Source: Centroscyllium fabricii
Lineage: Eukaryota
Assembly (NCBI GenBank): GCA_051313645.2
Contig: JBNRSN020000010.1
Coordinates: 10,044,001 to 10,108,000, forward strand
Direction: 5' to 3'
Length of the DNA stretch: 64,000 bases
Made by a program: the position numbers and the translations under genes. Below, piece by piece: positions 3,755 through 64,000 of this stretch. The notes below the pieces were generated by a model. It had not been told where the DNA came from. It worked only from the letters and a program-made list of their open reading frames with translations, and searched no databases. The stretch's first letter is position 1. Each line of letters begins with the position of its first letter.

Positions 3755-4659
3755 TCATTTTCTACATAATCCTAGAATTAATGTCCAGGGTAATTTCACC
3801 AACTTCTTCAGCTCTTCTCTGAATTTTTTCTGCGTGGCGACATAAATACAAGGGTTTTGAAAGCAGCTCAAAAACTTCAACATTGTTCCAGTTTCAGTGG
3901 CGATATATCCAGGGTGTGTGCGGTCACCTCGGTAAGAAGCGATGTTTGTCATTCTGGTAGTTACAAAACTCACGGCAGTTGTCAGCCACAACAATATAAA
4001 ACAGCCCGATATAGCGAAGAGTAATATGATGGATTTCCGTCGGTTGTCCAACTCTGGATCGTTGTGATTTTCACTCCTCTGAACACGGAGACCCCTACGG
4101 GCTCTGCTGGCCACTAAAATACGTCTGATTGTCAAATAATTAAACAAGGAAATTAACATAAAAGGAAGCCAAACGCCCCAGGCGCTGTGAAACCAAATGA
4201 AGGCTACACCTGCAATAGAGGAAACAAAAGCCACACTGTTCCGGCAGCCCCACTGCACCTTGTTAATTATTTGCTGTGGTTCAAATGCATACAAAATGGG
4301 GATATTTTTTGAAAAGTTTAGGACCGAAATAGCTGTTAAAACCGCGACCGCAGTCCTCTCCGTGCAATATTTTGCTTTAAATTTCTGGCAGCAAATAACA
4401 ACACATCGGTCAAATGTGAAGCAGACGGTGAACCAAACAGAGAGATCGAGGTTGACAGCAGTCATATATAGAATGAACGTACACACGGGGGTGTGGTACA
4501 GGAGTGAAAGTGGAAAGCGATAATTGAAAATATGATACACTATTACATTAATGATCAAGACAAGTAGATCTGCCGTTGCCATGGCAACCATGTAGACAGA
4601 GATACACCTGGTAAGTCCGCAGCTTCCTCGGAAGATAATCACCATTGTCACCAAGTTCG
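3755..4659 (-). CDS. GPR139/GPR142-like class A GPCR, copy 1, exon 2
   Basis: 7TM hallmarks: MATADLL (TM2), FTFDRC (DRY-like), NPCIY (NPxxY), FREEL helix 8. The acceptor tctctctttcttacAG ends at 4660. With exon 1 the CDS is 975 nt (324 aa plus stop). Confidence 0.92.
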
Positions 4660-38924: not shown

Positions 38925-41900
38925 TGTAACGGTTGGGTGTATTCAGAATGAAGGCGGGGCCCAAATGCAGAGACACTGAAACGTTTATAAAACTAAACAA
39001 CTTTATTCCTAAAACCCCTTATAATACCCTAAACATAACAATATATATATAACACATATTCAACACAAGTCTTATAAACAGACCGGCACAAACTTCCAAA
39101 CAGCGAGCAATGAATAGAGTGGTGCTACGCAATCCATGCGCGCCATTCTCCCCAAGAATACCAGTCCTGGCATAACTGTCCACCCTACAGAGAACCGAGC
39201 AAGTCCTCCTAAGCGAGCATGACATCTCATTCCACCCCTCTGCATAGAGGATGTGGGAACAGCTATGCTTCCAGATGACCAATGTCCAAACCAGGGTTCG
39301 GGTGATGAAATGAATGTCCATGTAGTGGAAATGGGTCCGACCTACTTCTTCTGCACTGACACAGAGACTTAACCCCATGGCAAACAGGCAGTAGCGCACC
39401 AGATCCACCGGCAGGGGGACTCCCTTACCAAACAGATGAATGTCCATGTCTGAGTTTCCAATAGCAGGGAGCACTGTCAAGGCGGAGGGAAATGCGTTCC
39501 ACCTCAATGCCCCTGTTGGGTAACCCAGCCTGAGCACCAGAAATAGCAAAGAACAAGTACCAGCTGAGTCCATCGATCTGCAACTTCCTTGTCCCTGACG
39601 GCGACTCAGCACAGCAGAAAACCACCTCCTTCCAGTGGCCTGAAGAATGAACAATGGATAGCAGTCCAGTCCCATGACGCATTACTCTGCAATGATCCAG
39701 CCTCTGACCTCAGCCAACCTCCTGATTATATGCTAACCCCAGTAAGTACCCTATTGGGTGATAGCCAATAATCCTGAGGGGCGTGAGACCAGAGCACAAC
39801 TTCCACACACATAGATAATTGAACAGTTAATCACATAACTAGGGACCTATTCCTTGAAACAGCTGTGGAAGCACAGCAAAAACCGCTTCCAATATTTAAA
39901 GGAACAGGCCCCCTGTGACAGGACCCCCCCTTAAGGGCCGACAGTGACGGCCCAAATACCCAATAAGCCAAAATAGGGTGGGCGGAGGGTACAAGGAGGA
40001 GACAACAGTCTACAAAAATTTTTTTTACATAGTGCTTAAAACGCCACAGTGTCTGCTGGGCCCCATTTGGCTGGATCATTCTGTAACGGTTGGGTGTATT
40101 CGGAATGAAGGCGGGGCCCAAATGCAGAGACACTGAAACGTTTATAAAACTAAACAACTTTATTCCTAAAACCCCTTATAATACCCTAAACATAACAATA
40201 TATATATAACACATATTCAACACAAGTCTTATAAACAGACCGGCACAAACTTCCAAACAGCGAGCAATGAATAGAGGGGTGCTACGCAATCCAGGCGCGC
40301 CATTCTCCCCAAGAATACCAGTCCTGGCATAACTGTCCACCCTACAGAGAACCGAGCAAGTCCTCCTAAGCGAGCATGACATCTCATTCCACCCCTCTGC
40401 ATAGAGGATGTGGGAACAGCTATGCTTCCAGATGACCAATGTCCAAACCAGGGTTCGGGTGATGAAATGAATGTCCATGTAGTGGAAATGGGTCCGACCT
40501 ACTTCTTCTGCTCTGACACAGAGACTTAACCCCATGGCAAACAGGCAGTAGCGCACCAGATCCACCGGCAGGGGGACTCCCTTACCAAACAGATGAATGT
40601 CCATGTCTGAGTTTCCAATAGCAGGGAGCACTGTCAAGGCGGAGGGAAATGCGTTCCACCCCAATGCCCCTGTTGGGTAACCCAGCCTGAGCACCAGAAA
40701 TAGCAAAGAACAAGTACCAGCTGAGTCCATCGATCTGCAACTTCCTTGTCCCTGACGGCGACTCAGCACAGCAGAAAACCACCTCCTTCCAGTGGCCTGA
40801 AGAATGAACAATGGATAGCAGTCCAGTCCCATGACGCATTACTCTGCAATGATCCAGCCTCTGACCTCAGCCAACCTCCTGATTATATGCTAACCCCAGT
40901 AAGTACCCTATTGGGTGATAGCCAATAATCCTGAGGGGCGTGAGACCAGAGCACAACTTCCACACACATAGATAATTGAACAGTTAATCACATAACTAGG
41001 GACCTATTCCTTGAAACAGCTGTGGAAGCACAGCAAAAACCGCCTCCAATATTTAAAGGAACAGGCCCCCTGTGACAGGACCCCCCCTTAAGGGCCGACA
41101 GTGACGGCCCAAATACCCAATAAGCCAAAATAGGGTGGGCGGAGGGTACAAGGAGGAGACAACAGTCTACAAAAATTTTTTTTACATAGTGCTTAAAACG
41201 CCACAGTGTCTGCTGGGCCCCATTTGGCTGGATCATTCTGTAACGGTTGGGTGTATTCGGAATGGAGGCGGGGCCCAAATGCAGAGACACTGAAACGTTT
41301 ATAAAACTAAACAACTTTATTCCTAAAACCCCTTATAATACCCTAAACATAACAATATATATATAACACATATTCAACACAAGTCTTATAAACAGACCGG
41401 CACAAACTTCCAAACAGCGAGCAATGAATAGAGGGGTGCTACGCAATCCAGGCGCGCCATTCTCCCCAAGAATACCAGTCCTGGCATAACTGTCCACCCT
41501 ACAGAGAACCGAGCTGGTCCTCCTAAGCGAGCATGACATCTCATTCCACCCCTCTGCATAGAGGATGAGGGAACAGCTATGCTTCCAGATGACCAATGTC
41601 CAAACCAGGGTTCGGGTGATGAAATGAATGTCCATGTAGTGGAAATGGGTCCGACCTACTTCTTCTGCTCTGACACAGAGACTTAACCCCATGGCAAACA
41701 GGCAGTAGCGCACCAGATCCACCGGCAGGGGGACTCCCTTACCAAACAGATGAATGTCCATGTCTGAGTTTCCAATAGCAGGGAGCACTGTCAAGGCGGA
41801 GGGAAATGCGTTCCACCCCAATGCCCCTGTTGGGTAACCCAGCCTGAGCACCAGAAATAGCAAAGAACAAGTACCAGCTGAGTCCATCGATCTGCAACTT

Positions 41901-42234
41901 CCTTGTCCCTGACGGCGACTCAGCACAGCAGAAAACCACCTCCTTCCAGTGGCCTGAAGAATGAACAATGGATAGCAGTCCAGTCCCATGACGCATTACT
42001 CTGCAATGATCCAGCCTCTGACCTCAGCCAACCTCCTGATTATATGCTAACCCCAGTAAGTACCCTATTGGGTGATAGCCAATAATCCTGAGGGGCGTGA
42101 GACCAGAGCACAACTTCCACACACATAGATAATTGAACAGTTAATCACATAACTAGGGACCTATTCCTTGAAACAGCTGTGGAAGCACAGCAAAAACCGC
42201 TTCCAATATTTAAAGGAACAGGCCCCCTGTGACA
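38925..42234 (-). mobile_element. Non-autonomous tandem LTR retroelement: three 996-bp LTRs (38925-39920, 40082-41077, 41239-42234) and two 161-bp internal regions
   Basis: TGTAAC...GTGACA termini. 5-bp TSD CCAAT at 38920-38924 and 42235-42239. On the minus strand each internal region starts with PBS-position GAATGATCCAGCC and ends with PPT AAGGGGGGGTCC. Period 1157 bp. Confidence 0.92.
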
Positions 42235-42248
42235 CCAATGGACACATC

Positions 42249-43088
42249 GGACCCTGTTTTCCTGTGCTCCAGAGGAGCTGCACCCCCACGAAGGGGGGTC
42301 AGAAATGCCTCCTGGGGGTGCAGCACGGGGGATGCCCACGAACGGCAATTTCCTGTGCTGATGGGCAAGGTGCTTCAGCTCCCAACGCAGGAAGAACTTG
42401 CACTGACAATTTCCTGTCAGAACGGGTGATTTTTGGAGAGTGAGTCCGTGTGCAACTGGCTCACAAGCTGCCCACAAAAATCGAGGTGTAAGAGGGAGAA
42501 GATTTAGTTTTTGAAGCAGGTAAGTTCATTTTTTAACTTTAATTTAAATTTTTTACAGTTTTGGGGAGTAGTGTGGCCAGATCGGTAGCGTACAATTTTT
42601 AAGCTAAAGTTTTTTTTAAATTTTAACAAATCCGATTTTAAGTTAATTTACATGTTTCAAATCGCTCATTTTTAAAGTTAAATTTCTGAAATTTTTAACT
42701 CTCTAGCTAATTTAAAAAAATTAAAAAATCTAAGAGGAAAAAATGGTTGACGTACCTTCTGTTTCTTCCTCTGAGAAGCTGCTGTGCCCCCGCGCTGCTC
42801 CCCGCGAGTCTGTTGTGCAGCACCGCACTTCCCTGCTCTCACTAAGGTCCGACTCGGGATCTGGTCATTTAAATTAGGGATCTGGGGGGCGTTTCTTATT
42901 TAAATTTGGGATCTGTGGGGGCATGGCTGGTCACGCACCAACAATAGCCAGACCCCTACGCAGCACTCGAAGACATTTTTTTTTACAGGAAATTGTCGTT
43001 CTGTTTTCTGAAAAAAGTTGGTGCGTGCAATTAGGCATCCCCAGGGTCCTAGCGCACGCACTAACCGGCACACAGGAAAACAGGGCCC
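42249..43088. mobile_element. MITE family B (Harbinger-like)
   Basis: TIRs GGACCCTGTTTTCCTGTG / CACAGGAAAACAGGGCCC with an AT-rich centre. Internal similarity to 51411-52269. Confidence 0.75.
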
Positions 43089-44879
43089 ATTCACAATTTT
43101 CCGGGTCAAATACTAGGCTGTTGCTACAGCAACGTTTCCATTTAGAAACATACAGCCACGTCTTCAAATCGCGCCATTGCATCACCACCCCAAGCTCTGT
43201 AACATTATCCAAATTAACAGTCCTATGAACTTTGACCATTGCTCAAACTCCGGACAATTATGCAGTAATCAATGTCTTCTCAACCCCTATTGGCGGCTGT
43301 CCCTTCAGCTGCATAGGCCCAAAAATCTGGAAGTCCCTGCCTTCTCCTTTCTACCTATGTCACTTTCTTCAAAAAGCTCCTTAAAACAGAAGTATTTGTG
43401 CAAACCTTTCGTCATCTTTCCTGTTGTCTCCTTCTTTGGCTCGATATCCTGTTTCGTCTGAATATGCTAATGTTTTGGAGCGTTTTGCTAAGTTAGATGC
43501 ATTATATAATGAACGAGATTGATGCTGTAATGAGCACTCCATCTTTGGCAGTCCCGTTTTCCACATATAGCTACATGCCACATGTATAAATAACAGTGGG
43601 ATTGGACTGCAGCGATCAATCTGTTGTAATGATCAGTCCATCCTGGTCAGTTCCGAATTATCTAGGTGGATCGGTAAATTTACAATGATCAATGTGTATG
43701 GGATCCACTGAATCCATTAATTGATCTGCATTGCTGATCATGACAGTAACTGGTTCAGCGCAGGAAAGGAATCAAATCAATAAACACAGCGCATTTACCT
43801 GTATAGAGCAGAAGGGCAGACAATCTCATAGCTCAGTGACTATTCTAAACTAATGGATCCTCACTGCTTCCAACAGAGTTCACAATGTCGGGCCTGAAAA
43901 AATATGTGCTGTAGAGAAGACGGAATATAGCAGCAACAAAGGTGGTGGTGATAATGATAAAAGCAAGAGGGACAGATGTGATGCCACATTTAATAACACA
44001 CAGCGTAGATTACCAAACTTGCTGTTAGATAATACATTCCTGGTTGACCAACAGGACAAGGATAGCCGTGACCATTAACTGGCATTTGACAGGAAGTATC
44101 CAGATGCAGAGAACAATCCACCGTTTTTATGAGGCCAGTTGCAGAGCGTGGTTTTATGGTAATTAGCCGACTGTTCCATATAATAAAGCTCATGTGCTTT
44201 TCCGGCCAGGTGGAAAGAATGAGGTGACACTGAAACCCGCCTGGTGGTAAGAAAACTAAGAGGCCCCGTGATGTTGGTCAATCACATGTAGTGATCCAGC
44301 ATGCCTAATTGAATCACTAGTATTATGTCATTGGAAATTGATCCAGAAATCACAGCGCTGAGCTTCATAACGTCTCCTGCAGTCCACATAATAAAATGAG
44401 ATGGGAATTGAGCAGGCCGCCATTGGGCTGAGAGGATGTGGTGAACAGACAAAATAAAATCTGTCAACTACCAATCTAATAATATATAGTTGTGTAGAAG
44501 CGGACATCAGATGGCCGTGCCAGCCTGTGTCAAGTACAGTGAACCACCGGCGCGGAAAGACTCCATGGGCTGTTGAGCTGGCATAGTGCTGCGGAGCAAA
44601 GTATCGCCTGAGCAGTGGGGAGAAAGGAAAATGAATGGAGGGAACGTTGGGCCAGAGTTTTTCCTCCACGGCGAATCGTCCTCGCCCTATTTAATTGCTT
44701 CTACACATTCCGAGTTCTTGACCCGACAGCGACAGTTAGACATTAATAAAAAGCAGTAACAAAGTAGATACACTATTTCATCAGAGGATAAGGAAGGAAA
44801 ATTGGCAGAAACAAAATGATAAATAATGTTAAGCAAACCACCGTAAGAAATGGCTCCAGGAAAAAAAGTTCGAGCAAAA

Positions 44880-46380
44880 TCCTGGTTTAGGACTGAAGTG
44901 GAAAGATTCTGTCTAATTCTACTCTGTTATAATGAAACAAAATTTCAAATACATATTAACCAACTGAATGTCAGGTCTATGTTGCAAACTGTCTTCATAG
45001 ACAATATCAAAAGAAATCCTGAAGGATAACGAAATGGAAGTACAATGCAAGCTGGAGTCGTACACTTGTCGTTGGAGACTCAGCTTGGAGTATTACACAG
45101 GAAATGGAAGCGATCGAATTACTGACGATGGGAAGTCAGAAGGTGTCACCTACATTTTACATGTTGCTTGGCAACGCATCAGGGATTATATTTGCGAAAA
45201 GTGACATTCGATACAAGGAAAAAACGAGTTACTTCAGAGAAGGAGGAAGCCACAGCGGGTAAATGAAGGAAGCAACTAAGTGCCTGGTTGAGCATTAACA
45301 ACAACACGCATGCCGGATTTAATGTACACTGTGTAAAGCTTCAAGAAGTTTCAACAACGTTTTCTTGACTCGTATGAATAACTCATCTCCATGGAATGTA
45401 CATCTGCCGATTGGACTTTCTAAGGACATTGTTGTTTCCCTAATTGCATGACTATGCAGGAATCATCCTTTTAAATTGTGTACAATTTAAAGTGAGACAA
45501 ACATCCTCCTCGGATGACTTCAAATGAATTTTCATGTTGAACATGATTGTAAATCTCGTGAACATAATTGCTGTTATAACCTCGTGAGGATCATAAACCA
45601 AACTCTTTCGTGATATTATTACCTCATTATTTGGTAACATTTTGGGTGTGAGGGAATAATCCAAAATTTCAGAAATATCCACCATTATATGAAAAGAATA
45701 CTGATAGTATTATAACAGAATACAATGTGCATAAGATCCAAAGCTTCGGAGACACAGGCTGCAAACAGTATACAGGCTCCTGAGATAAAGATCATTTGAT
45801 AGCAAATTTGTAAACAAGCTTTCAAATAGGAATTAGGTTAGTATACTAAAACAATGAAAGATTGAAGCAAACCATTTTTGCTTACGGAAGGTCTACGGTT
45901 TGCAACCAACACAATGAAAATATCCAATTTAAAGTTTTAAGAACGAACAAGTAAAACAGCTACAAAAAATATAAAGATGCATGTACCTTTGAAAAAATGT
46001 TATCAAGTAAAAGAAGCAGCTGCTGGTCAAAACGTTTGTATGTTAATATTGGAAGACAGGAAACACCTCTAAATATGCAAATAATTGAAATAGCTAGAAA
46101 TGCATGAACCACTCTGACAAAAGTGTCTTTAATTTACAGACATAGTATATATGATACTAAGAAGAACACATTGAAGATATAATTTCAGTAGAGACAAAAC
46201 GCACATACCTGATGTTTATAATAAATTTCGAGCAGCATGGAATCACAATGACTGCTAAAAAGCAATAAAGCCAATATTAAGAATTGAATGAAGAATCATC
46301 TGAAAGAATGGCATCAAACAGAAACCATTGCAGTCTTTGTTTAGCTGATCATTTTTGGAACTCCTGAAAGAAGATAAATA
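44880..46380 (+). pseudogene. env: Decayed foamy-virus-like env (leader peptide/SU)
   Basis: Colinear remnants CCKLSS, SWSRTLVVGDSAWSITQ, HQGLYL and SFKKFQQRFL..PW resemble my recollection of prototype foamy Env (CCATSS, QWNKDIQVLGPVIDWNVTQ, PQGVYY, CYQEFANCYL..PW). Many stops. Confidence 0.5.
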
Positions 46381-46396
46381 ATTATGCAAGTAATAC

Positions 46397-46621
46397 TGTA
46401 ACCCCTTCACGGTTCTTTAGATATATGTGAGATGCGTTCTCTGTTATATGCAGTATTCTATAGTCCAGTAAGGGGGTCCCTACTACAATGGCTTAATTCT
46501 GGTTATCTTACTTTATAGTTTTAACATCAAACAGTATAAGATTGCAGTAGAATGAACTAAATTAGACCATGGTGTATATTGAAATGGATGTATACATAAT
46601 AAACATACATTCCCAATTACA
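46397..46621 (+). mobile_element. Possible short LTR
   Basis: TGTAA...TTACA termini, TATAAG and AATAAA inside, followed directly by TGG (PBS-like). No partner LTR or TSD found. Confidence 0.4.
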
Positions 46622-47009
46622 TGGATTCAAGCGAGAATCTGTCCCTTCGTCCAAATTTGAGTGCACTCTAGTATTTGTTCAATTAACACCACCTGTGGAA
46701 GTCCCCTTTCATTGGCACGCTTACGTTGGAGCTCATGGTATGTATAATGTCTGCATGACTTAAGGCTCCGAACCACTTCGTTAAATTCTCTTCACGATCA
46801 CTGGATCCCACTTTGAGTTCTGGATGCAGAGCACACAGCAGCAGCTGGAGTTGGTGACACACTCACTATATCTCTGCCGCTTTTCCAAGTAGATCCCCAT
46901 CAGTACCAGGAAAGCAGCTCTCCACATACCTCTGCCTTGCAGGTCTGGGATGAGACGACGATCCCAAGGTACTGGTGACTTGCAGCCTGCCTGTTCACGA
47001 TGTGGAAGC

Positions 47010-47850
47010 ATTTCATGCATATCCATCTCATACATCAGATAATATGGAGCATCTTAAGGGACACCCACTGATGCTGAATTGGGCACATTATTGAGAGATA
47101 CCTGTACTTCCGGAATACTGACGATCCACTTATCTCCCTTATTCTCAACATTTTGACCAATAACTTTATTATTTCCCGATATCTTACATTCCACCATCCC
47201 CGCCGATTGGGCAGGATGTGGCGTGTTGTGATCTTACCCAATCCCCTTTTGCGTACAATAGACTTTGTAGACCTTAGAGACAAAGGCTCCGCCTTAATCG
47301 GAGTGTAACACCTTGGGTGCACCAGCTACAGTAACATTATCTGAAATGGACCTGGCGAGTATATTTTCCAAACAGTCTTTGGGGAAAAGCCATAGAAGGA
47401 ATTATATCCATCCAGGCAAACCAAAACATGCCTCTATCCAAATAATGGGGAAAGTGGTCAATAAAGTCAATGAAAAGTTTTCCCATTTGCTCATCAGCTT
47501 TCAAAGGAGCTAATAATGGTGGCTTAATTTAATGTTGACTTACTGTATGAATAATATGGCTCAACATTTGCCACCTATGTTTTACAGGCTTTAAGTGTGC
47601 CTGGCCACCAATACAACCGGGTCAATTTGCAGAATGTTATTCTGGCACTAGAAGATGATTGTGTTATGTGCATGTGAACTTCTTTACAAGCTGTGTTCCT
47701 TTCTGGCTCGGGGTATTAAAGGTTGTTTTGTGCAACTTAACTAGTACAATACCAGTCGTAGTTTCTGAGTATAATACCGTGGTGGACATTTTGGTCGATT
47801 CTCTGTTATTGGATCTAATAGCTGAATCAGTTGCTCATCCTTTGATGCTA
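47010..47850 (-). pseudogene. pol: Decayed foamy-virus-like integrase
   Basis: TFCKLTRLYWWPG; PPLLAPLKADEQMGKLFIDFIDHFP; HVLVCLDGY; GAPKVLHSD*GGAFVSK; HNTPHPAQSAGMVECKI; KWIVSIPEVQVSLNN; PYYLMY. These retroviral DDE motifs are colinear with foamy IN. Confidence 0.8.
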
Positions 47851-47879
47851 TCTCTCCGTAAAGGACTTGGACGACAGAA

Positions 47880-48780
47880 TGGGTTACCGTCCTCCAGATA
47901 TTACTTTCAATAATTTGAACTAGAAAGACACCTTCTGATATTATGAGGACCCGGAATAATCCCCCAGAATTCCGCAACTCCTTACAAGATTGTGTACAGC
48001 ATTTGCGTTCGCTAATTTATAAATCATTACTTTATTTGACGATTCCAAATATATGTAGCTTGACATTAGTGCCGTCATTCAGCTATCATCTGTTGAACCA
48101 GTCGCAAAATTACCAATTAAAAGTACAGATAGCTTTCTTTACTTATTTCTCAGAGATGCTGATTATCAATTCTTAAATGTTTACATCTCTACAGTTCTCA
48201 GATTTCCTTATTTTCAAATCTTTACTTCGTTACATTTCATATTTCTTACTTCTTTCTAAATCCAGTATATCCAGCAAAATCAATTCTAAATTACAGACAC
48301 TTTCAACAGAGTGGTTCATGTAGTTCCAGATATTTCAATTGGTTGCATATAATCGTTTTCCCTATAATCGAATTTTAACAGAAATGCTATTGAATCAATA
48401 TGTGTTTCTTTTACCTGATATCATTATTTTAAAGGCAATTGTCCCTTTTAATATTTCTGTTTCTGTTTTACAGTTTTATTTCTTAACACTTTAAATTGGG
48501 CATTTTCTTTGTGTAGCTTCCAAATTGCATATCTTTCGGAAGCACCAATGATTTGCTTCAAACTTTCATTGTTCTAGTATATTTAACTAATTCTTATTTG
48601 AATTCTTGTTTGCATATTTGTTATCAACTGATTTTTATCTCATGAGCCTGTATTACTTTTGCAGCCAGTGTCTTCGAGGCATTAGAATTTTTAACCCTGA
48701 ATATGCTGTATTATTAATATCATTGTTATTTTATATTATGGTGTATTTGTCTGAAACATGGCTTATTCCATCACAATTTC
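47880..48780 (-). pseudogene. env: Second decayed foamy-like env fragment (SU/TM), inverted relative to the first
   Basis: 48285-48778 is a roughly 70-75% identical reverse complement of 45647-46140. IISEGVFLVQ resembles foamy TM SVMEGMFAVQ. Confidence 0.5.
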
Positions 48781-49113
48781 TCGTCTCTCACATTTTTGAA
48801 AAAAGCCACAGGTTATTCATTAAGAACCATATCCATGTATTATCTTCCACAGACATGGTCCTTTTATATTCCATAATAGAACCAGCACTTACTTTAGTTA
48901 GCTTCTTGCTCATAATGTATTCATAAACATCTTTGGTTTTTTTCTTGCTTTTACCTGATAATATTTTATCATGCTCTCTGTTTCCTTCCTGATTTACTTT
49001 TTAATTTCCAGCAATTTCTGGAATCTGAGATGTCTGCGTAATTGACCCCTTGGTATCTTCATATGCTTATTTTTTTTTCTTTTTCATACCATGTATGCCC
49101 CTTGACATATAGA

Positions 49114-49768
49114 GGGCTCGAGATTTGATACAGCTTGTCAGAGCTCTTTGCGAGCGTCTTGTGCAAATGAACGGCGTAATTAGTTTGAAACCTCCCACGA
49201 GATCATTATATCGGCTTGGAGCCAATCATTGGAAGCAATCCCCCATTCAAAACTTGCACGGAGAAATCTGTGTAACTTATGAAAAGAGAGATTTACAAAA
49301 CACATCTAAAAACAAAAATAAAATTTAAAAAAACCGCATTTTTTACGGTACTCCAACAAATATAAATTACCTATTTTAAAGAAAAAAGAAAAAAATCGAT
49401 TGTTATTTTAACTCGTTAACTGGCCTAAAAGAATGCTGAGCTCTCATTAAAGTTTACTAAAATTATAAACCTGAAAGAACAACACCTAATATCAATAAAA
49501 TAAAGATTTACCTGCTAAAAATGGGTGCTTACGACTGGTATTTTCAAGCGTAGACTCTTCAATACTTACTACGCTGAAAATCTTTAAAAACACGGAAAGT
49601 CACTGCGCACCTCCTGATGTGCAGGCTCGTGCTATAATCAACGCAGCAGCTCAATCCGCCCCCCCCCCCTTTGGAAATGCATGGGCAGCTGCAAACGGCT
49701 GCTTCATGCTACTTGGAGCGCTTGCACCCGAGCTCCAAATCATAAATAGCGAACGGAAATATAGGCCC
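49114..49768. mobile_element. MITE family A, older copy
   Basis: Imperfect TIRs GGGCTCGAGATTT / AAATATAGGCCC. Internal block GAAGCAAT..TTCAAAACTT..GAGAAATCTGTG is shared with 53263-54022. Confidence 0.7.
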
Positions 49769-49774
49769 ATTTAA

Positions 49775-51195
49775 TCATCTTCGCATTTTTACACCAAAGT
49801 GGATAACCTCGCATTTTTGCACGTTATATTGCATCGGCCATGCTTTTACCCAACGAACCAACCTCTCCGAATCATACTGGAGTTACTCGGCATTCTCCTC
49901 ACAGCACACCTGCCCACCCAGCTTTGTGTAGTCTGCAAACTAGGAGACATTACATCTAGTTCCCTCGTCCAGATAATTAATAATTATTGGGAATAGCTGG
50001 GGTTCAAGATTCGATCCCTGCTACTCTGAAAAAGAGGCGTTTCTTCCAACTCATTGCTTTCTATCTGCCAATCAGTTATCTATCATTGCTCTCAATCCCA
50101 TGTGCTTTAATTTTACATGCTAATCTGTTATGCGGGACCTGATCAAAATTATTTTGAAAGTCCATATATACAATTGACATTGGTTCTCCCTAATCTATTT
50201 TACAAATTACATCCTCAAAAAAATTCAATTGAAAAGTCAAGCACGATTTAACTTTGGTAAATTTATGTTGACATGGTCAAATCCGTTTACTATTTCCCAA
50301 GTCCTCTGCTATTACACCTTTTATACTGGACACTAGCATTTTCCACACTACCGATGTCAGGATTACCAGTCTGTAATTCCCCATTTTCGTTCTTCCATAT
50401 TTTTCGGATAGTGGGGTATATTAGCAAAACTCCAATCCATGGGTACTTTTCCGGAATCTATCGAATTTTGGAAAATGACGAGCAATGCATCCAATGTCTA
50501 GGGCCACTTCCTTAAGTGCTCTGGGATGTAGATAATTAGGCACTGGTTATTTATTGCTCTTCAACCCCGTCAATTTCTTTAAGACCATTTCCCTGCAAAT
50601 ACAGATTTCTATCAGTTCCTCCCTTTCATTAGACCCCATTGTCCTCGACATCTCCGGGAGATTGTCTGTGTTCTTCTTTGTGAAGACAGAAACAAACTAT
50701 ATATTTATTTGGTCTATATTTATTTGTTACCCATTATGAATTGCCCTGATTCTGACTGCAGGGGACTTCAAGGGACCTACGCTGGACTTACCAAACTTTT
50801 TCTCTTCACATATCTATAAATGCTTTTAAAGTCGTTTTTTTATGTTTCCTGCAAGCTACCATTCATACTCTATTTAATCTCTCTTATGTAATCCCTTTCT
50901 TCTCCTTTGCTGAATAATAAACTGTTCCCATTCCTCACGTTTAGTGCTTTTCCTGGTCAATTTATTTGACCGCTTCTTGGATTTAAGATGTCGCTAATAC
51001 ACCTTGTTTGATATGGTTTAGTCACTTTTTTCCATTTATTTTTATGCCAAACTGGGATGAACAAATTATTTAGTTCATCCATGTGATCTTTGAATGTTCG
51101 CCATTAACTTTCCATCGTCAACATTTTGAGTGACATTGATAAATCAACCGTACCCGACTCGCGCCTCATACCATCTCAGTTTCCTTTTTTAAATT
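49775..51195 (-). mobile_element. Decayed CR1 ORF2 fragment
   Basis: Reverse-complement similarity to the CR1 RT at 16900-18320 (NYRLVILTSVVWK, FADY, IHFG). Confidence 0.75.
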
Positions 51196-55654: not shown

Positions 55655-56559
55655 TTATTTTCTACCTAATCCAATAACTAATGTCCAGGGGTATTTCACC
55701 ACCTTCTTTAGCTCTTCTCTGAATTTCTTCTGGGTGGCGACATAAATACAAGGGTTTTGAAAGCAGCTCAAAAATTTCAACATTGTTCCAGTTTCAGTGG
55801 CGATATATCCAGGGTGTGTGCGGTCACCTCGATAATAAGTGGTGTTTGTCATTCTGGTAGTTACAAAACTCACGGCAGTTGTCAGCCACATCAATATAAA
55901 ACAGCACGATATAGTGAAGAGCAAAATGATGGATTTTCTTCTGTTCTCCATCTCTGGATCGCTGTCATTTTGTCTCTTCTGACCCCGGAGTCCCCTGCGA
56001 GCTCTGCTGGCCACTAAAATATATCTGATTGTCAAGTAATTTAACAAGGCAATTAAAATAAATGGAAGCCAAACACCCCAGGCGCTGTGAAACCAAATGT
56101 AGGCTGCACCTGGAGGAGAGGAAACAAAAGCCACACTGTTCCGGCAGCCCCACTCTACCTTGTTAATTATTTGCTGTGGTTCATATGCAAACAAAATGGG
56201 GATGGCTCTAAAAAAGATTAGGACCGTGAACGCTGTTAAAACGGCGGCCGCAGTTCTCTCGGTGCAATATTTTGTTTTAAACTTCTGGCAGCAGATAACA
56301 ACACATCGGTCAAATGTAAAGTTAACGGTGAACCAAACAGACAAGTCGAGGTTGACAGCAGTTATATATAGAATGAACTTACACACGGGCGTATGGTACA
56401 TGAATGAAAGTGGAAAGCGATAATTGAAAATATGATACACAATTACATTGATGACCAAGACAAGTAGATCTGCTATTGCCATAGCCACCATGTAGACAGT
56501 GATGCACTTGGAAAGTCCGCAGTTTCCTCGGAAGAGAATCAGCATTGTCACCAAGTTCG
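55655..56559 (-). CDS. GPR139/GPR142-like class A GPCR, copy 2, exon 2
   Basis: Same 905-nt exon and acceptor as copy 1, with ADLL, FDRC and NPCIY motifs; intact ORF. Confidence 0.92.
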
Positions 56560-58352: not shown

Positions 58353-59846
58353 AGAATTAGATGAAATTGCTGTTGCATAGTTTCAGAAATTGCAGAATTA
58401 AATTGTTGTTTACGGGAATAAAGTTCAATCTGCCAGTACAAGTGATGATAATAATCCAACAGATCTAGTGAAGCCAACACCACAGAGAATGTTTGTCATG
58501 ACCCTGATTTCGATTCACTGCTAGTGCTTCAACTTCGAAGGAACAGGCGCTAAAACTTATTCTGCAATATGGGAGATGAACCCAGTCTGGCAGCAGTAGA
58601 GGTGACAGTGCTCCTCCCGCACTACTGGTACCCTACATTTAGATTAGAGTGAAATTTCCCCTCCTATAATACTGACGCCATACACTTATTATAGATGTGC
58701 CCGTGCTCCACAGGTACTGGTACCATGCCTACATTGGAGCTGAACGTATTGCTCTAGTAGTAGTGGCAGCAATAAAAGAAAACGACTATCGAATGTGCTC
58801 CTCCATTACAAGTGGGAAACCCATCATACACTGGATGTGCGTGAGCTCGTGTGTACACTGGCACCTCTACATTTAGACAAGATGTGAGCATTCCCCTCCT
58901 GCCACAATGCTAACCCTACACTGACATTGATGAGACCGTGCTTTTCCTGTCCCAGCGCTAACGGTATACTGGCACTGGATGTGAACGTGCCCCTCCTGTC
59001 GCAGTGCTACGTTGACAGGCCATGTCACAGTGCCTCTCCTGTCCCAGAGTTACATCTACATTGACAATAAATGTGAAAGTACCGCTCCTTTTCCAGTGTT
59101 ACACCTACACTGACACAGGATGTGATCATTCCGCTCTATTCCCTGTGCTAGCACTACACAAACACTATATGTGAAAATGCCCATCCAGTCCCAGAATTAC
59201 CCCTACAATGACACAAGGTGTGACCGTGTCCTTCCTGTCCCTGTGCTAGCGCTAAACTGACACTGAATGATACCGTGTCCCACCTATCCCAGATATAGCA
59301 TTACTATTTCACTAGATTTGAGCGTGTTTCGCAGTGTTTCCCTACACCTACCCTTACAATAGATGTGACCCTGCCCTTCCTGTCCAAGTGCTTACCCTAC
59401 ACGTATAATAGCTGTGAACGAGGCACTCCAGTACCAATGTTGCCCTTTCACTGACGCCAGATGTGACCTTTTCACTCCTGTCCCAGTGTTAGCTCTGCAG
59501 TGACACTGGATCTGACCGTGCCCCTTCTATCCGCGTGATACCCCTATATTTACAGTAAATGTGACCAAGGCTGGCCAGTCACCGTGTTAACCCTAAACTT
59601 GCACTTGATGTGAATTTGGCCCTCCTGTCTCAGTGCTACTACTACTCTGACAGTAGATTAGACAGTACCCATCCTATCACAGTGTTACCACGAAAATTAC
59701 AATAGATGCGACCGAGCCCCTTATGTCCCAGAGCTAACCCTACACAGACACGAGATGCGATTGTTCCCCTCCAGTCCCAGTGCTATCCATACACTGACAG
59801 GAAATTTGACATTACCCCTTCTATCCCTGTGTTACACCTACACTTA

Positions 59847-61757
59847 TGGTTCTGTTATCTATTGATTGGATGTGGACGTCGCTGGCTGGCTAGGGCTGCA
59901 TTTAGTCCCCTTCACTAATTGCCCTTGAGAAGAAGGTGGTCAGCTACCTTTTTGAACCGCTGCAGGGCATATGGTGTAGGTACGCCCACAATGTTGTTTG
60001 GCAGGGAGTTCCAGGATTTTGTCCAGCGACAGTGAATTAGCGGCGGTACAGGTCCAAGTCAGAATGGTGTGCGGCTTGGAGGTGAACTTCTATGTGGTGC
60101 TGTTCAAATGCGTCTGCTGCCCTTGACATTCTAAGTGGCAGAGGTCGCGGGATTGGAAGCTGCTTCTGAAGGAGCTTTGGTGATTTGCTGCATTGCATCT
60201 TGTAGATGCTACACACTGCAGCCACAGTGCGCCAGTGGTGGAGGGAGTGAATGTTGAAGGTGTTGGATGGCGTGCTAATCAATCGGCCTGATTTATCCTG
60301 AATGGTGTCGAGCTTCTTGAGTGTTTTTGGAGCTGCACTCATCCAGGCAGGTGGAGAGTATTCCATCACATTCCTGACTTATGCCTTGTAGATGGTGGTA
60401 AGAAATTTGTGGAGTCAGGAGGTTGGACATTTGCCGCACATTTTCCAGCCTCTGGCCTGCTCTTGTAGCCACATTATTTATATGGCTGGTCCAGTTCAGT
60501 TTCCGCTAAATGGTAACCCGCAGGATGTTGATAGTGGGCGATTCAGTGATGAAAATGCCATTGAATGTCAAGGGGAGACGGTTAGAGTGTCGCTTGTTGG
60601 AGATGGTCATTGCCTGGCACTTGTGTGGTGCAGATGTTACTTGCCAATTGTCAGCCTAAATCTGAATGTTGTCCAGCTCTCACTGCATATGGACACGGAC
60701 TGCGTCAGTATCTGAAGAGTCAGGAATGGTGCTGAACAGTGTGCAATCATCAGCGAACATCCCCACTACTGACCATATGAAGGAGGGAATCTCATTGATG
60801 AAACAGTTGAAGATGGTTGGGCCTAGTACACTGCCCTGAGGAACTCCTGCAGTGATGTCCTGTGGTTGAGGTGAATGACCTCCAACAGCCACAGACTCCC
60901 TTTGTGCTAGGTACGTTTCCAACCAATGGATAGTTTTCCCCTTGATTCACATTGACTTTAGCTTTGCCAGGGCTCCTTGATGCTACTCTCGATCAAATGC
61001 TGTCTTGACATCAAGTAATGTCACACTCATTTCACCTCTTAAGTTTAGCTCTTTTGTCCATGTTTGGACCAAGGCTGTAATGAGGTCAGGAGCTGAGTGG
61101 CCCTGTCGGAACCCAAACTGGGCGTCAGTTAGCAGGTTATTGCTGACTAATTGCCGCTTGATAGCACTGTTGACGCCAACTTCCATCTGTTTGCCGATGA
61201 TTGGGCGTAGACTGATGGGACAGTAATTGTCTGTGTCGGATTTCTCCTGCTTTTTGTAGACAGAATATATTTGGGCAATATTCCACATTACTAGGTAGAT
61301 GCCAGTGTTGTAGCTGTACTGGAACATATTGTCTAAGGGCGTTGCTAGGTTTGGAGCACATGTCTTCACTACTGTTGCCGGAATGTCGTCAGGGCCCATT
61401 GCCTTTCGAGTATCCAGCGTCTTCAGCCGTTTCTTGATATCACGTGGAGTGAATTAAATGGGCTTAAGACTGGCATCTGTGATGCTGGCGACCTCAGGAT
61501 GAGGCCGAAATGGAGCATCCACTCGTCATATCTTTCTGAAGATAGTTGCTAATGCTTCAGCCTTGTCTTTTGAACTCACGTTCTGGGCTCCACCATGATT
61601 GAGGATGGGTATGTTTTTGGAGCCTCCTCCTCCTGTGAGCTGTATAATTGTCCAACACCACTCACGACCGGATGTGTCAGGACTGCAGAGCTTTGATTTG
61701 ATCCGATGGTTGTGAAACCGTTTAGCTCTGTCTATCGCATGTTGCATCTGTTGTTTA
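59847..61757 (-). mobile_element. 5'-truncated LINE (CR1-group, a different family from 14457), decayed RT
   Basis: MGPDDIP...NYCPISL...QFGFRQGHSA...LDVKTAFDR; AGVPQGSVLGPTIF; MFADD; MEYSPPAW. Confidence 0.88.
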
Positions 61758-62552
61758 AATGAGATTTGACCTTGCCCTCCTGTCCAAGTATTACTCCTAC
61801 ACTGAACTAGATGTGAACCTCTCCCTCCTGTCCTAGTGTTACCACGACATTTTCACTGGATATGACGATTACCCTCCTGCCCCAGTGTTAACACAACACT
61901 AACATAAGATATGACCGTGTTCCTTCTGCTGCAGTAATACCTCGACAAAGACAATAGATGTTCCCTTGTCTCACATGTCCAAAGTGAACACCTAATATTA
62001 CACTAGATGTGACATTGCCACTCCTGTCCCAGTGCTGTCCCTAAACTTAAACCAGATGTGAAGGTGCCCCACCTGTCCCATTGCTACCTCCACACTTGCA
62101 CTAGATTTGGCAGTGCCCCTCCTGTCCTATTGTTACCCCTACACATTCAATGGATGAGACCTTGCCCCGACTGCCCCTGTGCTACACATACACTTAAACA
62201 TGATGTGAACTTGTTCCTCAGTTTCCAGTGTTACCACGACACTCACAGTAGATATGACCTGTGCCCTTCCTATCCCAGTGTTACCGCTAAACGTACACTA
62301 GCTGTAACCATGCCCCACCTGACCCAGTGCTACCACTACCCGTACAGTAGCTGTGAAAATGCAACTCCTGTTTAGTGCTGCCCAAACACAGACACGAAAT
62401 ATGACAGTGCTCACTTTTTACACTGTTAACCTACAATTTCACTTGCAGTAACCGAGCCCATCATGTCCCAGTGTTAGTCCTACACCGACACTAGATATGC
62501 CCTTGCACCTCCTGTCACAGTGTTAAAGCTACACTTACATTAAATGAGACCA

Positions 62553-62990
62553 TAATAACAACAGAAAACGATGGAGAAACTCATCAGCCCAGGCAGCATC
62601 GGTGGCGAGAGAAACAGAGTTGACGTTTCAGGTCGATGTCATTTCTTCAAAACTGGAGAAGATAGGGGGGGCGATTGATTTTAAGTTTGTGGAGGCTGGG
62701 GAAAGGGGGCGGGGGCTGTAAGAACAAAGGAATGACAAGCGACAGGATGGACGGCGGGTCAAGTTAAGTTCAATGTCTCCGAAGATGGCTCTGAGTCGGT
62801 GTGAACAGCTTTGGCAGAGTAAAGAAAAAAAAGGAAATAGTTAAAAGCCCACACGAAAGTGCTGATTGAAGGAGAGTAGATAGTTTTGTAAATCATTGTG
62901 TATGGGGCCGAGGTTACGATCTAAAATTGCTGAATTCTATGTTTATTCCAGAGGGCTGTAGAGTGCCTAAGCAAAATATAAGGTGTGTTT
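62553..62990 (-). mobile_element. Penelope 3'/pLTR fragment within the satellite
   Basis: Similar to 56673-57085. Minus strand encodes HLIFCLGTLQPSGINIEF. Confidence 0.8.
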
Positions 62991-64000
62991 CCTCCAGTCC
63001 CAATGCTACCGCTAAGCTTACACTAGATCGGACCGTTGCCCTCCTGTCCCAGTGTTACCCCTATGCTTACACTACAGGTGTCCGCGCACCTCTTGTCCCA
63101 TGAGGAGCCAAACACGGACAGTAGATCTGACCGTTTCATTCCTGTCCAAGTGCTACCCACAAATGTACATTAGCTGTGATTGAGACGTTCCAGCCCATTG
63201 TTCCCCCTACATTGACATTCGATGTCACCGTGCCCCTCCTCTCCCAGTGCCACAACAACCTTTACACGAGATGTGAACGAGGCCCTCCAGTCGCAGTGCT
63301 ACCCATACACGGTCACCATATGTGAGAGTGCCCCTCGTGTCCCAGTATTACCCCTACCATTCTATTATATGCTACCGTGCTCCTCCTATCTCATTGTTAA
63401 CCCTACATTTACACAAAATGTGACAGAGGCCCTCCAGTCTCAGTGTTACAACTGCTCGTACAAAGGATTGGACCGTGTCCCACCTGCCCAGTGCTACAAC
63501 TACACTGACACTAGTTGTGATCTTCCCCCTCCTATCCCTATGCCACAAGTATATTTACACTAGATGTAACCGAGGCCCTCCAGTCCCATTGCTACACGTA
63601 CACTGATACGGAATGTGACAGTGCCCCTCCTTTCCCAGTGTAAACCTTACAATAACACTTATTGTGACCCTGCCCCTCCTGTCTTAGTGTGATCCCTGGA
63701 CTGACATCACATGTGACTCTCCCATTTCTGTATCATTGTTACCCCTACAATGAACTAGGAGTGACTGTGTCCCGCCTGTCGCAGTGTACTCCTACAATTA
63801 AACTAGATGTGGCCGTGCACCTCCTGTCGCAGTGCTGCCCTAACCCTACACATACATTAGATGTGACCGTGCGAAACCTGACCCAGTGCTACCGGTACAC
63901 GAACAATAGATGTGATCGATGCACTCTGGTCCCAGTGATAACCTTTCGCTGACGCAGGACTTGCCATGTCACTCCTGTCCCAGTGTTATGCCTATACTGA

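Follow-up and report, generated by a model that had tools for sequence, protein, structure and literature searches.

A decayed foamy-like integrase between probable long terminal repeats in the genome of the shark Centroscyllium fabricii

Introduction

What kind of element left a broken integrase (IN) in the genome of the shark Centroscyllium fabricii, and how long ago did it arrive? The locus, around positions 44,880 to 48,780, belongs to a stretch of 64,000 nucleotides (assembly GCA_051313645.2, contig JBNRSN020000010.1, positions 10,044,001 to 10,108,000 of the forward strand) that was analysed as a whole and is called here the window; all coordinates are those of the window. That retroviruses date back to the Palaeozoic is argued largely from the co-divergence of foamy-like lineages with their hosts, and the shark members of these lineages are few, fragmentary and mostly represented by reverse transcriptase (RT) only (PMC5512871; the papers cited in this text were available to us in part, and what is drawn from them holds for those parts). 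An initial annotation, made from the letters of the window, had proposed a frameshifted foamy-like integrase flanked on both sides by remnants of the envelope gene, in an old and rearranged viral fossil of a cartilaginous fish. Our comparisons make it probable, with good but not full confidence, that a decayed integrase closest to those of foamy viruses stands here between repeats that are likely the long terminal repeats (LTRs) of one dead foamy-like shark provirus.

Results

The integrase is found at 47016..47893 on the minus strand, and comprises an N-terminal extension, a zinc-binding part and a catalytic core interrupted by 8 stops and 6 frameshifts. Six-frame translation and motif look-up placed all eight of the motif stretches that we checked on the minus strand, in three frames, between 47836 and 47087: EQLIQLL (47836-47816), KCPPRYY (47791-47771), LYWWP (47616-47602), KLFIDFI (47480-47460), VLVCLDG (47427-47407), PKVLHSD (47317-47297), TPHPAQSAGMVE (47224-47189) and KWIVSIPEVQVSLNN (47131-47087), each where the initial annotation had seen it. 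The catalytic D-D-E triad is retained (D 47468, D 47299, E 47191), and 3 of the 4 HHCC ligands of the zinc-binding part are unmatched. A PDB search with the core as read in a single frame (47380-46991, with X in place of stops) gave 121 matches at E up to 10, the best eight of which were all foamy virus integrases (5e-13 to 2e-11, with prototype foamy virus at 5e-13), followed by HIV integrases from 7e-5. The long frames had no Pfam matches beyond two weak ones, to rve (0.047) and Integrase_H2C2 (0.006). A frameshift-aware aligner, purpose-written for the present analysis, scored a foamy integrase profile at 139.6 bits (12 shuffles: mean 21, maximum 35), and a wider profile built from ten foamy or foamy-like sequences reached 172 bits over minus 47893-46934, in an alignment that crosses 6 frameshifts and 8 stops, some of which vary with the path taken. 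In foamy integrases an N-terminal extension domain precedes the zinc finger. A piece resembling this extension lies at the expected place and outscores 300/300 and 497/500 shuffles, with at least 8 of 1420 other window tiles scoring higher. The integrase is genuine, and its breaks are likewise shown.

To which group does this integrase belong? In a protein search covering 1.84 billion representatives, 97 matches passed E 0.001; the top one was P0002, a Gag-Pol of 1687 residues that carries a second RNase H and an SH3_11 domain and is encoded on a Logan contig of 10,956 bases, and feline foamy virus Pol (P0008) ranked seventh. When 186 proteins were scored singly in a frameshift-aware manner (the query and 14 near-copies of P0008 excluded), the 11 foamy-labelled rows scored 104-140 and the frog protein P0062 scored 103, against 90 for the best of the other 174, so that foamy or foamy-like proteins occupied ranks 1-12 among competitors that had been gathered by likeness to the window integrase or to P0002. 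Among 21 further open reading frames (ORFs), taken from contigs found through a tRNA-Pro primer motif and typed by length and RT motif, gamma-types scored at most 65 and delta-types at most 49; the approximately unbiased (AU) test also rejected a grouping of the window integrase with gammaretroviruses (p=0.0075), and neither a gamma- nor a deltaretroviral membership emerged. In a quick mixture-model tree of 57 rows the window integrase was sister to all foamy rows, with a Shimodaira-Hasegawa-like approximate likelihood ratio test (SH-aLRT) value of 92. In a 28-row tree (LG+G4), with rows hand-chosen from the 57 and the longest Gypsy branches omitted, it was joined with 8 foamy rows at 98/95, and it was still with foamy rows (87/92) in a tree for which the frames were picked by the Gypsy profile. 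Its branch falls outside all sampled foamy rows (95/82), a position inside them with P0002 being kept by the AU test (p=0.14), and its identity to foamy integrases is 34-36% at best. As judged from these scores and trees, the window integrase groups with foamy integrases, more weakly in control trees, in agreement with the foamy-like reading of the initial annotation.

P0002 comes from an intact foamy-like element in which Gag and Pol share a single reading frame, these being separate frames in the six mammalian foamy genomes that we used as references; the latter were taken from viral contigs, and by likeness one (L001, 98% to P0008) was considered feline and five (L002-L006) simian. P0062, annotated as uncharacterised in the frog Pelodytes ibericus, is a foamy-like RNase H-integrase with the same integrase domains, and P0114 is a foamy Pol of 1156 residues on a Logan contig of 10,295 bases. 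The window integrase found no match as a query in viral contigs and none among 25 candidates in a word-indexed protein search, and P0002 found no match in metagenome contigs. A tRNA-His primer motif retrieved a single contig, of 62 kb.

The sequences on both sides of the integrase are inverted copies of one repeat. Positions 45647-46136 align with 48775-48287 over 490 bases (75.4% identity in 495 columns), and a weaker likeness, matched by 9 of 200 shuffles, continues to 46394 and 48062, respectively. The two copies share their first base and open with TGTG, and upstream of this common start the flanks share no sequence (score 69, shuffle mean 74). The likely 5' LTR, 47895..48775 on the minus strand, has a firm 5' end at 48775 and a loose 3' end that meets pol at about 47850-47895, and carries AATAAA at 48036. 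It starts with TGTGATGGAAT, identical in 10 of 11 letters to the LTR start of simian foamy genomes (L003-L005), a match present at only 2 of 127,978 window positions (at least 9 of 11 letters: 29 positions). The other 10-of-11 position, 60370, was rejected because beyond this start it resembles neither LTR copy. The likely 3' LTR, 45647..46394 on the plus strand, is truncated at about 46394 and starts with TGTGAGGGAAT (9 of the 11 letters); it is immediately preceded by GGG, the rest of the polypurine tract having decayed, and the same junction of GGG with TGT occurs in 6 of 6 foamy genomes. Furthermore, 48775 is observed directly as the end of an element, since, in organism A, 27 contigs of run X1 and 24 of run X2 leave the locus at this base for mutually unrelated sequence (median 255 letters, agreement 0.37). 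Divergence into disagreeing sequences is expected of an element present at many insertion sites, and the element is taken to belong to a multicopy family.

No Env was recognised in the flanks by Pfam (six frames and short pieces), nor in the left flank by a PDB search of its three plus frames, and a hidden Markov model (HMM) of six mammalian foamy Envs and frameshift-aware profiles gave no convincing match, these profiles representing mammalian foamy viruses, from which fish foamy-like Envs may be too distant. Mismatches between the copies are evenly spread over codon positions (e.g. 18/18/11 and 11/12/14). Fusion-peptide-like text in the flanks, a first impression, was dropped. Because there is no Env or codon signal, both flanks share a foamy-type start and the element ends at 48775, we read the flanks as likely paired LTRs of the virus, and the envelope remnants of the initial annotation are not supported. 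Of its two expectations, that the integrase would fall outside Gypsy and that the flanks would match Env profiles, the former held in the main trees and the latter failed.

LTRs are expected as direct repeats, and the pair in the window lies in inverted orientation. Contigs of both X1 and X2 contain opposite-strand joints at 44688-47006, 44688-47016 and 44690-47015, and the window's own arrangement across 44688 is also present (X1 record 1, X2 record 7). Because one site with two partner points is the pattern of two inversion ends, we infer that a block of about 2.3 kb (44689..47015, with a short near-repeat at both ends), which includes the 3' LTR, was inverted and split the integrase. Such an inversion predicts the missing end of the integrase on the plus strand from 44690, and the likely C-terminal part of the same integrase, moved to the other strand, was found at 44690..45029 on the plus strand: a foamy integrase C-terminal profile scored 28.3 bits there, above 500/500 shuffles, with at least 8 of 686 window tiles scoring higher. 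Neither Pfam (including the SH3-type C-terminal domain PF18103) nor PDB matched this part. Between it and the 3' LTR lies a plus-strand remnant of 617 bp (45030..45646), where env and accessory genes would be located; it ends with the GGG described above and has no Pfam match. Since the Env of the reference genomes has about 985 residues, these 617 bases leave no room for a whole env. Searches of the locus with the foamy HMM and frameshift-aware profiles found no match to gag, protease, RT or RNase H, and the two matches given by Rfam on 43000-51000, both below threshold, were taken as chance.

Nested within the 3' LTR, at 46397..47006 on the plus strand, there is likely a second LTR element that is far more abundant and comprises a 5' LTR (46397 to about 46711), a primer-site-like motif and a leader. 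Its signals are a TG start, TATAA at 46535, AATAAA at 46598, and CA followed by TGGC at 46713, and it does not resemble the distal 5' LTR, the score of that comparison being reached by 192 of 200 shuffles. Summed contig depth, which is not a copy number, is 39,000-118,000 over this element, 400-2,000 over the integrase and 12-40 in unique flank, the increase from 46397 being about a hundredfold relative to the integrase.

The neighbourhood contains two intact single-exon frames of GPR139-like G protein-coupled receptors (GPCRs), both on the minus strand, at 55658-56545 and 3758-4645 (83% protein identity). One of the two was searched, and all 120 listed matches were from sharks and rays, the highest identities (73-76%) being to Pristiophorus (sawshark) and Heptranchias (sevengill), which bears out the cartilaginous-fish host proposed at the outset and makes a squalomorph shark the likely one. 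Six exact look-ups of GPCR sequence found none. This family is much expanded in sharks, with 421 matches at E 1e-60 or better. An 11-kb tandem duplication (7357-29332, 98.8%) and about three repeats of a 1157-bp unit (38925-42234, 99%) reflect either recent duplication or assembly redundancy. In addition, long decayed arrays of a 49-bp minisatellite, interleaved with RT frames that by eye resemble long interspersed nuclear elements, occupy 5800-35000 and 58800-64000, and gag-like and protease-like frames at 3-1447 look by eye like a Gypsy element.

Discussion

Taken together, the locus is probably a foamy-like endogenous retrovirus (ERV) in its organisation as well as its origin, and its provirus is likely dead, internally deleted, partly inverted and of no present function. 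How old it is depends on how the repeat pair is read. The pair differs at 115 of 485 sites (about 24%), a distance of 0.285 +/- 0.028 (0.347 with the weaker distal part), in line with the old, rearranged fossil of the initial annotation. Its 42 transitions and 73 transversions resemble those of five other old repeat pairs in the window, and because these five pairs differ by 0.14-0.32, such decay is not rare there. With 6-8 stops over its 277 codons, the integrase is compatible with 0.14-0.3 changes per site but not with 0.03. Furthermore, X1 and X2 each contain one contig of a paralogue that includes the LTR and its flank, with 69 differences over 48570-49130 (distance 0.137). These contigs suggest that the locus was duplicated together with its flank, and 0.137 would then be an age floor independent of the LTR pair. 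Two pieces from X5 and X6, two further runs (organism B, small share), are 99% identical to this copy; they come from a species that is either very closely related or the same one under another label, and so do not constrain deep age.

Ages were calculated as T = d/2u, the method and its caveats following PMC8922424. With the rate that PMC4422223 quotes for mammals the LTR pair would be 65 Myr (million years) old, with 1e-9 it would be 142 Myr, and with 0.5e-9, the rate assumed for catshark in PMC10699275, 285 Myr; across these three rates the floor given by the duplication alone is 31-137 Myr. The rate of 2.2e-10 assumed in PMC4422223 was rejected, as the resulting 648 Myr (520-775) predates jawed vertebrates. 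If both LTRs derive from a single integration and drifted at about 0.5e-9 per site per year, integration would have occurred roughly 230-340 million years ago, a tentative dating that we regard as possible although doubtful. If true, this would rank with the oldest retroviral insertions that have been dated directly, the oldest such dates standing at about 100 Myr as of 2017 (PMC5512871), and orthologues would be expected across squalomorph or all sharks. It would also place an integrase of tetrapod and coelacanth foamy type in cartilaginous fishes, which would speak against the view of an independent replacement in the tetrapod and coelacanth lineage.

Several observations weigh against a single foamy-like provirus and favour one or another alternative. 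Neither a tRNA-Lys or tRNA-Asn primer binding site, sought between 48775 and 47830, nor a target-site duplication for the LTR pair was seen, and because of this the origin of the two LTRs in a single integration is unproven. The 5' LTR abuts pol directly, and the primer-site part of the provirus appears to have been deleted; the 3' end has been lost to the nested element. These features would also be explained if the integrase were the same foamy-like one and the two LTRs came from two insertions or subfamilies that recombination or deletion had brought together in a duplicating region, in which case their distance overstates the age. The LTR family is diverse and abundant, and the window contains 11-kb and 1.2-kb tandem duplications, both of which are in keeping with such a chimaera. 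However, the stops in the integrase are consistent with decay as deep as that of the LTR pair, and the paralogue of LTR and flank is already 0.137 apart irrespective of that pair. We consider a chimaeric pair unlikely; were the pair chimaeric, or the rate mammal-like, the locus would amount to a further old ERV amid repeats of equal decay.

A second group of adverse points concerns the integrase and the genes around it. RT, the defining marker of published foamy-like ERVs, was not found at the locus, the branch of the integrase is long, and integrases of teleost or chimaera foamy-like ERVs (FLERVs), lokiretroviruses, epsilonretroviruses, CGIN1 or Ginger were not knowingly among the rows of the trees. 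Taken alone, the matches to the N-terminal extension and to the C-terminal part are weak, and the joint table behind the inversion lists joints without their directions, the two ends of one inversion being inferred from it. A Gypsy-like LTR retrotransposon, or another non-foamy retroelement whose decayed integrase is drawn to foamy integrases in long-branch trees, would account for a broad Gypsy profile (37 sequences) scoring 165 bits on the stretch where the foamy profile scored 167, for the 121-codon core alone joining the Gypsy-like trio P0046/P0080/P0094 at 70/63, and for the main Gypsy set being retained as a partner by the AU test (p=0.062); likewise, no env is shown and most of the 97 protein matches resemble Gypsy-type integrases. 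Nevertheless, the AU test rejected a grouping with the Gypsy-like P0046 group (p=0.033), both longer read-throughs grouped with foamy rows, and foamy proteins led the ranking despite the way in which their competitors had been gathered. The Gypsy profile match begins at 47712, short of the N-terminal extension, and the LTR start and its preceding GGG are of foamy type. A non-foamy origin is accordingly quite improbable. Lastly, the mosaic of an integrase between two decayed envelope genes is largely refuted and very improbable, for although the Env profiles are mammalian only, with fish foamy-like Envs perhaps too distant, and a foamy Env surface-subunit profile scored 26.0 bits on 45024-45320 (one test among several, reached by 2 of 100 shuffles), neither large flank matches Env or shows codon bias, the element end coincides exactly with the start of the right flank, and the foamy LTR motif opens both flanks.

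Under the preferred reading of one foamy-like provirus, the history of the locus could be as follows. A foamy-like virus would have integrated into germ-line DNA in the way usual for D-D-E integrases, leaving two identical LTRs; deletion would then have removed the primer site together with gag, protease, RT and RNase H, and the greater part of env. The second LTR element may then have inserted into the 3' LTR, and the region, part of a tandemly duplicating GPCR cluster, may have been copied along with its flank. In this copy the 2.3-kb block would later have inverted, splitting the integrase, and the whole locus would have drifted neutrally.

Foamy-like ERVs are already known from sharks, and the window locus would add a further member. 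Our literature search, in which subscription papers, repeat libraries and supplements were outside the scope, found no paper on a squalomorph foamy-like ERV; shark is not mentioned in the available part of bioRxiv 2020.12.18.423569, and PMC6001957, PMC10587355 and bioRxiv 2021.11.23.469661 are, in the parts seen, related literature. CmiFLERV of Callorhinchus milii resembles the window locus in consisting of foamy-like pol fragments in a cartilaginous fish with env unrecognised, and no gene besides pol was detected in the foamy-like ERVs of that species (PMC5512871). By their descriptions the two differ, since CmiFLERV was placed by RT and Pol, with no LTR pair or date in the text available (PMC5512871), whereas in the window RT is missing, an LTR pair remains and the host is an elasmobranch. 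The LTR-dated CmiERV lineages I-III are also ERVs of cartilaginous fish; unlike the window locus they are snakehead- or epsilon-like, and their LTR distances of 0.024-0.033 are about one tenth of 0.285 (PMC4422223). ERV-Spuma.0-Sca of Scyliorhinus canicula, the small-spotted catshark, was described in a screen of 12 chondrichthyan genomes and is likewise a multicopy family of the foamy clade with LTRs and no Gag or Env domain (PMC10699275). However, it clusters with FLERVs of ray-finned fish, and at 0.5e-9 per site per year its LTRs date to about 36 Myr at the oldest, as compared to about 285 Myr for the window at the same rate (PMC10699275). The two are set apart by description only and may be the same family.

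With its LTRs, its many insertion sites and its deep decay, a foamy-like family of this kind would allow insertions to be dated directly by orthology across sharks, something that the fragmentary shark members lack. Foamy integrases have been divided into a tetrapod and coelacanth 'group II' and a fish 'group III' (PMC7947760), and an integrase of the window type could test whether fish and tetrapod foamy viruses acquired their integrases separately, as considered in that paper. In this regard, the foamy LTR start is common to the window and the reference foamy genomes, and in domain order, motifs and D-D-E spacing the window integrase is like the group II integrases of feline and simian Pol and P0062, to which P0002 and P0114 are added here.

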